IMG/VR virus record: IMGVR_UViG_2671180814_000001
DNA from: a virus
Taxonomy: Duplodnaviria; Heunggongvirae; Uroviricota; Caudoviricetes
Reading direction: 5' to 3' (one strand)
DNA length: 4,917 nucleotides
This document shows, piece by piece, positions 1-4,917 of the stretch (within the stretch, counting starts at the first letter, position 1; the number at the start of each line of letters is the position of its first letter). The position numbers and the translations under genes were made by a program. The notes beneath the pieces were generated by a model. That model was not told the origin of the DNA. It worked only from the letters and a program-made list of their open reading frames with translations, and searched no databases.

Positions 1-23
1 AAGGAGTGTCCGTTAAACTCAGG

Positions 24-389
24 CTACCTCATTCTGGCGAGTCGTTTTTTGGAGTGTTCGCGGGCTTTTTCCTCCGTCATCTGAATAATCAGCATATCAG
101 CAGGATCGCAAATCACGTTGTAAATCACCCAGCCGTCAATCAGGCCGATAGTCTTGCCGGTTCGTGCCGGGCCAACAAATATCACTGCGTCGTATTCACG
201 CGAGGCCAGGCAGTTCATCGGCTCAATAACATACGGTGCCACCAGCGGATCCCACGGGACTGAGTTCCCTGCCCCCATGGGCACCCGCATATACTGAGCA
301 ACGGCATCAGCAACCCGCATTCGTCTCGGTGCGCGAAGGATATAACCTGAATCGGTTCGTGCTGCCTTTGCGGTTTCCTGATTCAGCAT
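24..389 (-). CDS. Phage terminase large subunit (lambda gpA-like), N-terminal ATPase fragment; 121 aa, far shorter than the ~640 aa family norm, so probably truncated or a pseudogene
   Basis: ORF with ATG at 387-389 and TAG at 24-26. Walker A-like motif FVGPARTGKT, in a context that loosely parallels the lambda gpA N-terminus as recalled. The start overlaps the stop of the upstream Nu1-like gene (TAATG), matching the lambdoid Nu1-A arrangement. Only 23 nt remain to the window edge, so a frameshifted continuation cannot be assessed. Confidence 0.65.
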   Translation of the reverse strand: MLNQETAKAARTDSGYILRAPRRMRVADAVAQYMRVPMGAGNSVPWDPLVAPYVIEPMNCLASREYDAVIFVGPARTGKTIGLIDGWVIYNVICDPADMLIIQMTEEKAREHSKKRLARMR

Positions 390-883
390 TACTCCTCCTG
401 CTGTAATTCCTCCTCATCATCCGCACCTGCTTCAGTCACCCGCAGGGCTATCTGATCGCGCAGATCATCAATAATGGACTGAACACGGCTCACAGCGGCA
501 GGCTGCAGACCGCAGTCACGTTCAAGAATATCCGGTAATGTCTCCAGCACCTGCACGACCGCTTTTGCCCAGATGGCAAACTCCCGTCTGACATCACTGG
601 CCGGAATGAGTTGTGCCGTTTCCTGTTCGAACTTAAGACGCTCACGTTCAGACTGATACCAGGCTTTGCGCTCATGCGCGTCCATTTCGCCTTCTGCAAC
701 CGGCGGTGGTAATGCCAGAAATGCCGACACAATATCAACCACCCGATAAAGCTTGAGGTTGCTTTCATGCCCCCCTGCAACGGGTAGATTTTGCAGCCTT
801 GCCGCAGCAGTCTGGCGATGTACACCTGACAGTGCCGCCAGTTGACTGATATTCAGCGTCAGATTTTTTAACTCTCGATCCAT
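389..883 (-). CDS. Phage terminase small subunit / DNA packaging protein (lambda Nu1 family)
   Basis: 164-aa ORF. The N-terminal segment LNISQLAALSGVHRQTAAARLQNLPVAGG has the same pattern as the lambda Nu1 helix-turn-helix region (KKQLADIFGASIRTIQNWQEQGMPV), and the C-terminus is acidic. GGAG lies 8 nt upstream of the ATG at 881-883. It sits about 180 bp downstream of the cos-like site and directly upstream of the large terminase, with overlapping stop/start. Confidence 0.8.
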   Translation of the reverse strand: MDRELKNLTLNISQLAALSGVHRQTAAARLQNLPVAGGHESNLKLYRVVDIVSAFLALPPPVAEGEMDAHERKAWYQSERERLKFEQETAQLIPASDVRREFAIWAKAVVQVLETLPDILERDCGLQPAAVSRVQSIIDDLRDQIALRVTEAGADDEEELQQEE

Positions 884-1240: not shown

Positions 1241-1417
1241 ATGAGGGACAAACCCGCGAACCATAAACGCGGTAAAAACCCGGTGTGCATCGTTTTTGAT
1301 TATTCCCGCACACTCGCGCAGAAGGAGTTCCCCGTCGGGCTACGGTCATGGTTAATACGGGAATACGGCGACGATACAGCGCATGATGTGTCAGGCTTGA
1401 ATACCTTTATCCTTTAA
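1241..1417 (+). CDS. Hypothetical small protein (58 aa from ATG 1241; the ORF track starts at GTG 1202), opposite orientation to the late genes
   Basis: AGGA at 1228-1231 sits 9 nt before ATG 1241. A hairpin with a T-run on the plus strand follows about 50 nt downstream (1464-1490). The position between Rz and cos, on the opposite strand, is where lambda carries bor, but the protein is not Bor-like and I do not recognise it. Confidence 0.25.
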   Translation: MRDKPANHKRGKNPVCIVFDYSRTLAQKEFPVGLRSWLIREYGDDTAHDVSGLNTFIL

Positions 1418-1463
1418 AAGGGATATCAGTTAAGTTATCCCGTGTAGGGTATAAGCCATTATC

Positions 1464-1490
1464 AAAGCCACTCTGTAGGAAGTGGCTTTT
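1464..1490 (+). terminator. Candidate intrinsic terminator hairpin (stem AGCCACT/AGTGGCT, 8-nt loop, TTTT tail; A-run on the other side, so possibly bidirectional)
   Basis: 7-bp perfect stem at 1466-1472 and 1481-1487, followed by TTTT at 1487-1490. Confidence 0.4.
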
Positions 1491-1501
1491 GTAATGGCAA
1501 T

Positions 1502-1525
1502 AAAAAGCCCCGCGAATGCGAGGCT
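1502..1525 (-). terminator. Rho-independent terminator for the minus-strand (late) transcript
   Basis: Minus-strand RNA AGCCUCGC-AUUC-GCGGGGCU followed by UUUUU: an 8-bp GC-rich stem with one G-U pair. A near-identical element follows the other Rz copy at 3478-3500. Confidence 0.5.
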
Positions 1526-1558
1526 AAATCCTGGTATTTGTAATGACTGGCTCTTATC

Positions 1559-1702
1559 TCAACGCAGCCCCTTACCGCGCGCAAAATGCTCAATATCAAG
1601 CATCAGCAATGAGATGTTTAATCTGGATTCACTCCAGAAGTGAGCACCACCCTGTCTACAGAGCCAGATGTGAAGGATGATGAGTAAAATTATCGCTATC
1701 AT
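1559..1702 (-). CDS. Possible small membrane protein (47 aa, [47 protein letters not shown]), translationally coupled to Rz
   Basis: ATG at 1700-1702 overlaps the Rz stop at 1699-1701 (ATGA). The N-terminal 14 residues are strongly hydrophobic. The ORF ends about 35 nt before the terminator at 1502-1525. It is below the ORF-track length cut-off and was found by manual translation. It is absent from the equivalent position after the second Rz copy. Confidence 0.25.
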
Positions 1703-2166
1703 CGAAGGCATTGCGTCCTGATGTATTCCTGAAGCGTTCTCAGTGCTGTTTGGTCGCGGATAATTCCGTCCCGGATACCGAGAACGTTTCGTCCAGCAAC
1801 TGGAGAGAGTTCGACGGTGGCATCATTGCCCATGCCGGAGGCGCTGGAGGTTTCGGCTGAGGATGGCACAGGGCATTTTCCTTTGACGAGCACCCGACCA
1901 CCATTATCAAGCTTGCGCCGAAGAGCATCATTTTCAGCTTTCGCATCAGCTAACTCCTTCGTGTATTTAGCATCGAGTGCATCAGCATCACGCTGGCGCT
2001 GCTGCATGTCAGTAATGGTTGCGTTCGCCAGCTTCAGTTCTCTTGCGTTTTTGTCGCGCTGCTCTTTGTAGGTAATGGCGTTATCACGGTAATGATTAAC
2101 AGCCCATGACAGGCGGACGATGATGCAGATAACCAGAGCGGAGATAATCGCGGTGACTCTGCTCAT
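1699..2166 (-). CDS. Rz: Rz i-spanin (inner-membrane spanin subunit), lambda type
   Basis: The N-terminus [34 protein letters not shown] (TM helix) followed by a coiled-coil-like region matches lambda/DLP12 Rz as recalled. ATG at 2164-2166 overlaps the upstream endolysin stop (ATGA). A C-terminal Cys is present. Confidence 0.85.
1740..1946 (-). CDS. Rz1: Rz1 o-spanin lipoprotein, embedded in the +1 frame of Rz, lambda type
   Basis: [21 protein letters not shown] has a lipobox (VVGC) and is followed by the proline-rich [16 protein letters not shown]. It resembles lambda Rz1 (MLKLKMML...VVGC...PPPPPAW) and lies entirely inside Rz. Confidence 0.8.
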
Positions 2167-2281
2167 TGCTGCCCCCACAAACAGACTTCACGCTCAATCT
2201 CACGACGGGTCATCAGCCCTTTCCATTGCTTACCGCCAGCATATGTCCAGCGACGTAGCTGGTCACATGCGCCTTTGATAT
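2163..2281 (-). CDS. R: 3' end (last 38 codons) of a second endolysin gene, interrupted upstream by the N gap
   Basis: Translates to [38 protein letters not shown], almost identical to the C-terminus of the complete endolysin at 3987-4484. The reading frame runs directly into the N-run at 2282. Confidence 0.8.
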
Positions 2282-2465
2282 NNNNNNNNNNNNNNNNNNN
2301 NNNNNNNNNNNNNNNNNNNNNNNNNNNNNNNNNNNNNNNNNNNNNNNNNNNNNNNNNNNNNNNNNNNNNNNNNNNNNNNNNNNNNNNNNNNNNNNNNNNN
2401 NNNNNNNNNNNNNNNNNNNNNNNNNNNNNNNNNNNNNNNNNNNNNNNNNNNNNNNNNNNNNNNNN
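2282..2465. other. Assembly/scaffold gap (184 N)
   Basis: Uninterrupted run of N. It begins inside the endolysin reading frame, so real sequence is missing here (at least the 5' part of the endolysin and probably a holin). Confidence 0.95.
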
Positions 2466-2578
2466 GTTATTTCCCCACTTACTGGCTTGGGTTGTTTCGT
2501 GGTACTGCCGTTAACTGGTGGCCCAGAATAAATTCCGGTTTCATTATCAAGCCCACCCGTAAATGGGCTTTGTAATGG

Positions 2579-2836
2579 CTACTTCGCTTTTGCTTCCGCT
2601 CGCTTACGCCGGCGCTCTTCTTTCCTCTCGGCTTTTGCCATGTCCATGAATGCCTGCATGATCGAGTTCCGCATCATGTAGCTAACAAAGTGATGATTGA
2701 CACAGCCGTTGAGGCGCAGCTGCTCGCCAAACTCATCCACCGAGGCCAATGCTTCCATCATGCCCTTCTCGCCTTTCATGAACTCTGAGAAGTCGCGCCC
2801 CGCTCTGGAGGCGCATTCAATAACATGATCACTCAT
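2579..2836 (-). CDS. Hypothetical 85-aa protein with an acidic N-terminal half and a strongly basic/charged C-terminal tail; downstream partner of the KilA-N-like gene
   Basis: ATG at 2834-2836 overlaps the stop of the upstream ORF (ATGA). C-terminal tail AKAERKEERRRKRAEAKAK. A hairpin (AAGCCCA/TGGGCTT, 2549-2570) lies 9 nt past the stop. I do not recognise the family. Confidence 0.5.
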   Translation of the reverse strand: MSDHVIECASRAGRDFSEFMKGEKGMMEALASVDEFGEQLRLNGCVNHHFVSYMMRNSIMQAFMDMAKAERKEERRRKRAEAKAK

Positions 2837-3330
2837 CCCGGAAGCCCGGGGATCGTAATCTGCAGCTGGTTAGCCAGGGAGTTAATCTCAGCGACCAACA
2901 CTGGCTTCGTATAGCGCCATGCTGCCAGCCCTTGTCCGCAGAAGCTCGCCATGTCTTTCTTCTGGTCAAATTCATGACATTTCATGTTGAGCTGCGCACT
3001 TAAGCTGTTGCGATGCTGAAGTTCTCCGGTGAAGTAGTCATCGAGGACTTTATAGGCCGCGTACTTGAACCCGGGGTTTAACCAAGCCGCATAATCGTAA
3101 GCAACAAACTTCCCGCCATATGTTCCACCGTGTACACCGCGCTCAGTAAAAACCACAGATTCGTGGTTTTTCTCCAGCTCGGCTAAGAACTCTTTGGTCT
3201 GCTTGTTTCGCAGGTAGTGGTAAGGCGATTCAGATTCACTTTTACCACTGGCTTTCCACATATCAGTGAGGCAGATCATGCCATCTTCACCGATACGAAT
3301 TGGTTGATTGAAGAGGGTTAATGATTTCAT
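2833..3330 (-). CDS. KilA-N-domain-like protein (165 aa), function unknown
   Basis: The N-terminal ~110 aa fit the KilA-N pattern as I recall it: LFNQPIRIGEDGMICLTDMWKASGK ... EFLAEL ... GGTYGGKFVAYDYAAWLNPGFKYAAYKVL. The C-terminal ~55 aa are unassigned. ATG at 3328-3330; a weak GAG/AGG SD lies upstream. Preceded by the tandem terminators that follow the complete lysis cassette. Confidence 0.6.
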   Translation of the reverse strand: MKSLTLFNQPIRIGEDGMICLTDMWKASGKSESESPYHYLRNKQTKEFLAELEKNHESVVFTERGVHGGTYGGKFVAYDYAAWLNPGFKYAAYKVLDDYFTGELQHRNSLSAQLNMKCHEFDQKKDMASFCGQGLAAWRYTKPVLVAEINSLANQLQITIPGLPG

Positions 3331-3445
3331 AGCGTGTACCTACTCTTTGAAATGAACCTTTGCCGCACAGGAAACCAGCCCACCGAGGCTCGCCAGCACT
3401 AACTGGTATCCTCAAAGGCCCATTCCAAAGGGGCAGGTTCGGTGT

Positions 3446-3470
3446 AAAAAACATGCGTTGCGGTACGCAT
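3446..3470 (-). terminator. Candidate intrinsic terminator (stem ATGCGT/ACGCAT, 6-nt loop, U6 tail on the minus strand)
   Basis: Perfect 6-bp inverted repeat at 3453-3458 and 3465-3470. On the plus strand it is preceded by AAAAAA at 3446-3451, which is the U-run on the minus-strand RNA. Confidence 0.4.
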
Positions 3471-3477
3471 TTATTGC

Positions 3478-3500
3478 AAAAAGCCCCGCATCGCGAGGCT
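3478..3500 (-). terminator. Rho-independent terminator directly downstream of Rz (same module as 1502-1525)
   Basis: Minus-strand RNA AGCCUCGC-GAU-GCGGGGCU followed by UUUUU. It lies about 30 nt after the Rz stop and is near-identical in sequence to the element at 1502-1525. Confidence 0.5.
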
Positions 3501-3531
3501 CATTAAATGGACTTTGTGATTTGCAAAAAAA

Positions 3532-3990
3532 TTATTTCAGGCATTGCGTCCTGATGTATTCCTGCAGGTAGTTAACCTGCGCGGTTATCTTGTCGATTCC
3601 ACTTCGGAGACGGTAATAATTGAGTTCAGCATCTGCTGTAAGTCCTGGGCTTTCTCCATCGCCCATGCCGCTGGCTCCGGTCGTTGACTTTGCACAGGTG
3701 GCGGCGACTTGCAGGCGCTTACGCCCAGCAGAAACATCAGCACGGAGACTTTCGATAGTCGCGTTAGCATCAGCAAGCTCCTTTATGTATCTTGCGTCGA
3801 GTTCTGCTACATCACGTTGACGCTTCCGCATGTCAGCGATGGTGGCGTTCGCCTTCTCCAGTTCACTGGCCTTGTTATCGCGCTGCTCTTTGTAGGCGAT
3901 TGCGTTATCACGGTAATGATTAACAGCCAATGACAGGCAGACGATGATGCAGATAACCAGAGCGGAGATAATCGCGGTTACTCTGCTCAT
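3532..3990 (-). CDS. Rz: Rz i-spanin (second variant; C-terminal half diverged from the copy at 1699-2166)
   Basis: [35 protein letters not shown]-terminal TM helix followed by a charged coiled-coil-like region. GGGGGA SD before ATG 3988-3990. The ATG overlaps the endolysin stop (ATGA). Rz1 is embedded. Confidence 0.85.
3585..3770 (-). CDS. Rz1: Rz1 o-spanin lipoprotein, embedded in the +1 frame of Rz (second variant)
   Basis: From ATG 3768-3770: [20 protein letters not shown] (signal peptide with lipobox Cys) followed by the proline-rich [16 protein letters not shown]. Entirely inside Rz. Confidence 0.75.
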
Positions 3991-4484
3991 TGTTTCCCCC
4001 ACAAACAGACTTCACGCTCAATCTCACGGCGAGTCATCAGTCCTTTCCATTGATTACCGCCAGCGTATGTCCAGCGCCGTAGCTGATCACATGCGCCTTT
4101 AATATCACCCTGGTTTATTTTGCGAAGAAGCGTCGATGTTCTGAAATTGCCAGCGCCCACGTTGTAAACGAACGAGTAAAGAGCGCCGCGCGTTGTTTCC
4201 GGTATATCGACTTTGATGTACGGGTTAATTTGTCTGGCGACAGTGGCAAGGTCTTTATTCAGGAGAGCTTTGCACTCTGCTTCGGTATACGTTTTACCGG
4301 GAATGATGTCTTTTCCTGTATGCCCGTAACATACAGTCCATACACCAACTATGTCTTTGTAAGGATTATGTCTCACACCTTCCAGACCATCGTTACCACC
4401 TGGGCCAGTGATTAACACAGATGCTATAGCAATAGCCCCGCCACCAATAGCAGCAGCAACAGCTTTTCGTAATGATGGAGGCAT
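3987..4484 (-). CDS. R: SAR endolysin (phage-21 R / DLP12 RrrD-type lysozyme with an N-terminal signal-anchor-release domain)
   Basis: 165 aa. [28 protein letters not shown] is a Gly/Ala-rich weakly hydrophobic SAR segment. It is followed by a T4-lysozyme-like catalytic region (LEGV...YKD...VWT). Near-identical to the phage 21 R protein as recalled. The start overlaps the holin stop (TAATG). Confidence 0.9.
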
Positions 4485-4699
4485 TATCCACCTCTCGCAG
4501 CCTTGCGCTTATCTTCTTTAATCTTGAAATAAAGGTTTGTCAGGTACGTCAGCAGGCCAAATACCAGGCTACCCAGCACTCCAATTGCCGCCCACTGTGA
4601 GGGCGTGACTTTATCTAGCAGCTGTAAAAACCAGTACCCGGCACTACCTGCTGAGGTGCCATAGGCGACACCCGTTGTTAACTTATCCATGGATTTCAT
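4484..4699 (-). CDS. S: Pinholin, S21 family (class II holin, 71 aa) with a dual-start motif
   Basis: [71 protein letters not shown]: two TM segments and a charged C-terminus. Met1-Lys-Ser-Met4 is the antiholin/holin dual start. A strong SD (GAGGTGGGG) precedes the ATG. Near-identical to phage 21 S / EssD as recalled. Confidence 0.9.
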
Positions 4700-4811
4700 A
4701 ACCCCACCTCGCAGACAAAGCGGGTGTAAATTGAGGGAATACTACGAAACGTAACAGACTCGGAGTCAGTGAATAACTCAGGTATTGGGTTATCAGCTAA
4801 TATCGAGACTC

Positions 4812-4844
4812 AAAAAATGGAAAAACCCGCTCGACGGCGGGTTT
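4812..4844 (-). terminator. Candidate tR' (terminator of the short late-promoter transcript, the target of Q antitermination)
   Basis: Minus-strand RNA AAACCCGC-CGUCGA-GCGGGUUU followed by UUCCAUUUUUU: a perfect 8-bp stem with a U-rich tail, about 110 nt upstream of the holin start. Confidence 0.55.
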
Positions 4845-4874
4845 AAGCTGTGTGACGAAGTAACCACTCTTAAC

Positions 4875-4903
4875 AGCATAACCAATTTTGGTGATGCTGC
4901 CAA
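4875..4903 (-). promoter_or_regulatory. Candidate sigma70 late promoter (pR'-like)
   Basis: On the minus strand: TTGGCA (-35, 4898-4903), a 17-nt spacer, and TATGCT (-10, 4875-4880). The predicted start is about 55 nt upstream of the terminator T-run. The Q gene would lie beyond the right edge of the window. Confidence 0.35.
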
Positions 4904-4917
4904 CTTACTGATTTAGT

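Follow-up and report, generated by a model that had tools for sequence, protein, structure and literature searches.

A 184-N gap between two S. sonnei prophage remnants: a repeat-induced break with a probable scaffolding misjoin

Lysis cassettes of the P21/DLP12 type are made of the essD holin, the rrrD endolysin and the Rz/Rz1 pair. In phage HK620 the corresponding genes come in the order S, R, Rz, hkbK, hkbL, an arrangement that is also found in many E. coli prophages. Beyond the hkbK/hkbL pair, HK620 and the S. sonnei prophage both continue with further late-region DNA and terminase genes. The stretch of DNA analysed here, 4,917 nt in its whole length and called the window below, can be compared with these systems half by half. 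Its right half is a complete P21/DLP12-type cassette, which has the HK620 order and about 97% nucleotide identity with that phage over the matching parts. Its left half consists of Rz/Rz1 and the last 38 endolysin codons of a second cassette. Among E. coli sequences, the closest relatives show 98% identity and are labelled essD, rrrD and lysis protein. The window departs from HK620 and from the S. sonnei prophage at one point: next to the hkbK/hkbL pair, in place of late-region DNA and terminase genes, it has the second endolysin fragment, beyond a run of N. A third kind of known case, the misjoins made by short-read assembly in strains with several lambdoid prophages, resembles the locus in each respect that we compared. 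In both, contigs end at repeat edges (here IS600, IS1 and a 167-nt endolysin stretch), a repeat is assembled once with the alleles of the other copy, the length of the N run is an estimate, and breaks occur at the same base in other assemblies. We found no essential difference between such cases and the window. Our conclusion is that the 184 N very likely represent a scaffold gap in an S. sonnei short-read draft, where a break induced by a repeat was combined with a probable misjoin of two prophage remnants. The joining itself by the scaffolder is the component that we call probable. Neither half is new: both are well-known P21/DLP12-type lysis regions of decayed S. sonnei lambdoid prophages.

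The window contains a single N run, at 2282-2465 and exactly 184 N long, and no other ambiguity code. It is the exact reverse complement, 184 N included, of the public record CXAM01000202.1 (L038 in our set of loci; 4917 bp, assembly GCA_001261375.1); a literature search found no mention of either the record or the assembly accession. The outer ends of the window are an IS600 terminus on the left and an IS1 terminus on the right, and both stop about 30 nt into the multicopy insertion element. Contigs that stop just inside multicopy insertion elements are typical of short-read assembly. Because both of its ends are insertion-element termini, we take the window to be a whole repeat-bounded short-read scaffold. 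It is one entire deposited scaffold, built from two short-read contigs, left (1-2281) and right (2466-4917), whose features are collected in Table 1. An insertion element hidden in the gap was considered and rejected: the outer ends of the window both have an insertion-element terminus, whereas the two edges of the gap have none.

The description of the collection mentions a few stretches masked as N runs, and the 184 N could be read as such a mask, laid over continuous sequence by the preparer of the data set rather than left by an assembly. However, the 184 N are present in the public record as the collection stores it, the precomputed gene index of CXAM01000202.1 already holds a 38-aa partial endolysin product that starts at the gap edge, which means that the N run preceded gene calling, and the flanks come from two loci with 0.7 Mb between them (see below). 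Among all the readings weighed in this work, a mask is the one that we hold to be least probable.

Table 1. Features of the two contigs joined in the window (window coordinates).
Feature	Coordinates	Strand	Evidence or remark
IS600 terminus	1-31		left contig ends about 30 nt into the element
Terminase large subunit, N-terminal 121 codons, cut by IS600	24-389	-	PF05876 GpA_ATPase, E 4.5e-22
DUF1441 protein, small-terminase position of prophage A	389-883	-	PF07278, E 2.7e-41; same gene context in relatives
Non-coding stretch with a second copy (about 97% identical) in prophage B	1279-1499		BLAST matches of 1371-1499 and 1279-1375
Rz (inner-membrane spanin) of prophage A	1699-2166	-	PF03245, E 2.8e-30
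Rz1 lipoprotein ORF embedded in prophage-A Rz	1740-1946	-	PF06085, E 3.8e-21
Prophage-A endolysin (rrrD type), last 38 codons and stop	2163-2281	-	end of the left contig, not of the gene
Non-coding DNA downstream of the 85-aa ORF, start of the right contig	2466-2578		no ORF accepted as a gene
85-aa ORF, counterpart of hkbL of phage HK620	2579-2836	-	without Pfam match
KilA-N / ORF11CD3 domain protein, counterpart of hkbK of HK620	2833-3330	-	PF04383, E 1.3e-15; PF10549, E 2.4e-13; HK620 annotation
Rz of prophage B	3532-3990	-	PF03245, E 1.9e-38
Rz1 ORF embedded in prophage-B Rz	3585-3776	-	PF06085, E 2.4e-20
Complete 165-aa endolysin of prophage B (rrrD type)	3987-4484	-	PF00959, E 8.3e-48, 162.3 bits
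167-nt segment identical to the prophage-A endolysin of finished genomes	4108-4274		A equivalent is 2284-2450, inside the gap
Class II (P21-type) holin, essD-like, of prophage B	4484-4699	-	PF04971, E 2e-35
IS1 terminus	4890-4917		right contig ends 28 nt into the element

The left contig is part of a decayed lambdoid prophage, here called prophage A, whose order on the minus strand is holin, endolysin, Rz/Rz1, DUF1441 protein and IS600-cut terminase. Compared with locus A of S. sonnei 53G, a prophage remnant, it has 1 mismatch in 2281 nt (99.96% identity). The aligned part of this 53G locus is L028 8166-5886, and from 8136 on L028 is 99.9% identical to a sequence annotated as 'IS3-like element IS600 family transposase'. 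E. coli relatives match the left contig only from window base 32, and the same 121-aa terminase product followed by IS600 ORFs occurs in closed genomes.

At the gap side of the left contig, the original prediction had an endolysin reading frame running straight into the N, and this we confirm: the last 38 codons are present on the minus strand (2163-2281), with codons at 2166-2279, the stop at 2163-2165, and bases 2280-2281 belonging to the next codon. When aligned with the complete copy at 3987-4484, the fragment corresponds to residues 128-165 of a 165-aa RrrD-type endolysin. Against PF00959 (Phage_lysozyme) it scores 30.2 bits, for a cut-off of 22.3 (E 6.5e-7), and it covers profile positions 98-125 of 125. 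The translation of the right-hand endolysin has an E35-x8-D44-x5-T50 motif and a Gly/Ala-rich N-terminal hydrophobic segment, both of which are also present in the prophage-A copy of 53G; a Glu-x8-Asp-x5-Thr catalytic motif and an N-terminal membrane anchor are features of the P21 endolysin. The visible left fragment lies downstream of both the catalytic motif and the membrane-anchor segment and, judging from its sequence, could not be active by itself.

Whether this fragment is a truncated gene was asked of other genomes. The identical Rz was found in 10 places, 7 of them in chromosome-scale S. sonnei records. All 10 have an intact 165-aa endolysin directly upstream of it, and a 71-aa holin is adjacent upstream of that endolysin in 9 of the 10. 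The E. coli relatives of the left module (98% identical) likewise have a complete endolysin and holin preceding it. The possibility, raised earlier, that the left module really is truncated was therefore not borne out by any of the 10 places with the identical Rz. Measured in 53G, 379 nt of the endolysin lie beyond the left flank, and the holin start is 594 nt away, a distance that agrees well with the roughly 600 bp which the original prediction had deemed necessary to complete the left cassette. The left cassette seems truncated only through the contig ending there; finished S. sonnei genomes have the whole of it.

The right contig is part of a DLP12-like prophage, here called prophage B, in which the order is IS1, holin, endolysin, Rz/Rz1, KilA-N protein, 85-aa ORF. 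It differs from the DLP12-like prophage of 53G (locus B) by 4 mismatches in 2452 nt (99.84% identity). In S. sonnei loci this flank aligns up to position 4917 and IS1 genes follow (InsA, DDE_Tnp_IS1); an E. coli match without IS1 stops at window 4889. The DNA between the gap and the 85-aa ORF had been described as non-coding and unrelated to the leader upstream of the holin, and both statements held: no ORF was accepted in 2466-2578, and its comparison with 4700-4889 gave a local score of 12, against a mean of 10.3 and a maximum of 16 for shuffled sequences, hence no similarity above controls. Two terminator-like hairpins with a T tail were noted on the minus strand, one at 4823-4844, in the leader upstream of the right-hand holin, the other at 1506-1525, about 175 nt downstream of the left Rz. 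Both are consensus matches only, and the total number of such hairpins is not above the shuffled expectation.

We then looked at what stands next to the 85-aa ORF elsewhere. In chromosome-scale records with an identical 85-aa ORF, the right flank is continued by a 183-nt spacer and then by a 129-nt copy (97.7% identical) of window 1371-1499. IS2 comes next in most such records, and splits the 129-nt/221-nt repeat copy with a 5-bp duplication. What follows the 85-aa ORF in chromosome-scale records is thus a spacer and an IS3-family element (IS2 or an IS2 remnant), and an endolysin fragment after the identical ORF was found in none of them. The prophage-B copy of 1279-1499 (221 nt) corresponds to L010 6555-6683 and 8015-8111, and lies 183 nt beyond the right edge of the gap. 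The spacer that follows window 2466 measures 183-190 nt (L003 3811-4000, L010 6372-6554). In its E. coli copy (L003), a 23-codon ORF with AAGGAG ahead of it on the gene strand (MSAEGFNNPSKFRDEWDSSVKSK) was seen by eye, and on the opposite strand some annotations call a 62-aa ORF which reaches into window 2466-2575; neither ORF has a family match on record.

The positions of the two flanks were compared in finished genomes, all from isolates other than the source of the window. In HE616528.1, named as S. sonnei 53G (PMC5447701), the gap-side end of the left flank maps to 1,943,123 and that of the right flank to 2,661,375, which puts them 718,252 bp apart on the same strand. The separation is 709,733 bp in CP032523.1 and 748,378 bp in CP180280.1, with the same relative orientation. 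The original prediction had itself envisaged, as an outcome that would speak against it, flanks that are not adjacent in the genome; in the three finished genomes they lie 710-748 kb apart. A colinear arrangement of the window was found in none of 5,426 complete E. coli genomes (megablast of 1500-3400 and 2100-2640). The two multi-piece E. coli matches that were inspected have the pieces in the opposite order, with the 2466-2578 sequence downstream of Rz, and matches in the phage collection have the normal HK620-type order only. A bridging pattern, made of the 18 nt that close the left flank, 170-200 of any base and the 20 nt that open the right flank, was absent from genome_contigs and viral_contigs.

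These distances bear directly on the reading in which the join is real in the isolate, as a private rearrangement that placed the B module (holin to 85-aa ORF) beside a truncated A endolysin, with a junction of about 100-260 nt. Some evidence must indeed have led the scaffolder to link the contigs, rearrangements are frequent in S. sonnei genomes, as the many insertion elements around both loci show, and lambdoid phages are mosaic, as illustrated by L044, where a second Rz stands downstream of an antirepressor module. However, with the two loci so far apart in direct orientation in three finished genomes, simple recombination between them would delete about 0.7 Mb. Moreover, neither gap-side contig end carries an insertion-element terminus, and the ends share no homology. 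Among 24 contigs read with the same right-hand endolysin variant, seven distinct places were shown, and the left contig is attached in this record only. Finally, other assemblies are broken at the same point (see below). A real join is, for all these reasons, very unlikely. We give still less credit to its biological extension, namely that the isolate carries a partial tandem lysis region in which the DLP12-like lysis/KilA-N module is fused to the truncated endolysin of a second prophage. If that fusion were real, it would have originated in a private illegitimate recombination or in a duplicative transfer of the module.

The sequence around the break points instead to a repeat-induced break with a probable misjoin. 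The two endolysin genes of 53G are about 88% identical overall, but are nearly identical over a long stretch that opens 2 nt past the break. The 167-nt identity between the right-hand gene and the prophage-A endolysin (Table 1) starts 2 nt after the break (base 2281), and the end of the left contig coincides with the repeat edge. No repeat edge was found at 2466, where the right contig starts, and other drafts continue through this position. All 4 differences between the right contig and the 53G B locus fall within the 167-nt stretch, at 4155, 4167, 4187 and 4266, and all 4 are A-type. Read in this order, the four sites are AGAG in the 8 other B copies and GACA in the 10 A copies; the B copy of the window reads GACA between B-type flanks. 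In sister drafts, which were picked for encoding the same protein variant, the pattern is GACA, GACG or AACG; in one finished genome, CP180280.1, it is AGCG. The A-type allele at endolysin codon 100 (4185-4187) changes C100 to G in the right-hand copy, and this C100G change is the only one of the four A-type alleles present in the B copy of CP180280.1. Because that finished copy has one A-type allele, the A alleles of the window need not all stem from repeat collapse; repeat collapse in assemblies and some real gene conversion between the copies both seem to occur. The G100 of the right-hand endolysin, its only amino-acid difference, is nevertheless suspect, since it sits in a stretch with the alleles of the other copy.

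Many unrelated draft assemblies have a contig end at this base too. The collection lists 157 blocks with the identical 38-aa partial product, and five distinct places were shown (L044-L048). In 4 of the 5, the contig ends there, starting TATCAAAGG or ATATCAAAGG, which corresponds to window base 2280 or 2281. In the fifth place, JZPI01000104.1 (L044), a 250-N run ends at the same base, and endolysin residues 1-60 are found on its other side; the true hole in this record is 201 nt long and lies within one endolysin gene, between residues 60 and 128. We conclude that the conserved middle of the rrrD-type endolysin gene is a systematic breakpoint in short-read assemblies of strains with several prophages.

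JZPI01000104.1 also offers a precedent, with its 250 N inside a single endolysin gene, for another reading of the window: a simple unresolved repeat in one cassette, where the flanks would be adjacent, the gap underestimated, and the 5' part of the endolysin together with the holin would lie inside the gap. The error of about 75 nt in the N runs of sister drafts also goes in this direction. However, to the right of the gap stands the 3' flank of the prophage-B 85-aa ORF, as in every relative, and not a holin upstream region. In no genome examined are a holin and an endolysin 5' part placed between that flank and Rz. Of the simple unresolved repeat that had been foreseen, one part stands, as the gap does coincide with a 167-nt repeat between endolysin genes, and the other falls, as the flanks are not adjacent in finished genomes. 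We therefore rate the one-cassette gap below even the tandem lysis region in likelihood.

The length of the N run was examined in sister drafts. In CXCM01000351.1 (L040 2309-2700), 392 N stand for about 314 nt; in CXCW01000306.1 (L041 1862-1927) there are 66 N, yet the flanks overlap by 8 nt. N-run lengths from this accession series are rough estimates, off by about 75 nt. The earlier statement that the given gap length is probably not the true one was right in that the figure cannot be taken at face value, but too mild, since the flanks are not even adjacent. As it happens, two real distances come near 184: the 167-nt repeat which the left contig must cross, and the 183-nt spacer leading from the right contig to the copy of 1371-1499. 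The stretch 1371-1499 itself lies within the left contig, in the same orientation as the copy beside the right contig. With a repeat geometry through either the 167-nt or the 129-nt copy, the orientation fits and 184 roughly fits, but the contigs should then overlap instead of leaving a positive gap from 2281 to 2466. The linking read pairs could have come from either of these shared sequences.

For a repeat-induced break followed by a misjoin, the following course of events may be proposed. On the simplest view, the assembler would have built the shared 167-nt stretch once, inside the right (B) contig, and mostly from A-type reads. The A contig would thereby have been left ending at the repeat edge, deprived of a continuation. 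The scaffolder would then have set both contigs side by side with an estimated 184 N, probably by means of read pairs in shared sequence. In the isolate, the left flank most likely continues with 379 nt of endolysin and then the holin, and the right flank with the 183-nt spacer, the 129-nt repeat copy and IS2. A junction probably does not exist, and nothing functional should therefore be concealed there. Probably, then, there is neither a truncated gene nor a tandem lysis cassette here, and the cut endolysin is an assembly artefact and not biology.

Some caution follows for the use of this record. Readings of the window as a tandem cassette, as a truncated endolysin, or as a lysis region with a particular neighbour downstream of the KilA-N gene all depend on the join made in this scaffold, which finished genomes contradict. 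Each half should be read by itself, as a piece of one of two known decayed S. sonnei prophages, which are riddled with IS600, IS1 and IS2.

A last observation concerns JZPI01000104.1. A contiguous stretch of this record (L044 6383-6850) carries a second, diverged Rz of 155 aa, with about 73% nucleotide identity to the first one. This second Rz has no endolysin fragment in front of it, and sits between the antirepressor module and a Nu1 terminase gene.
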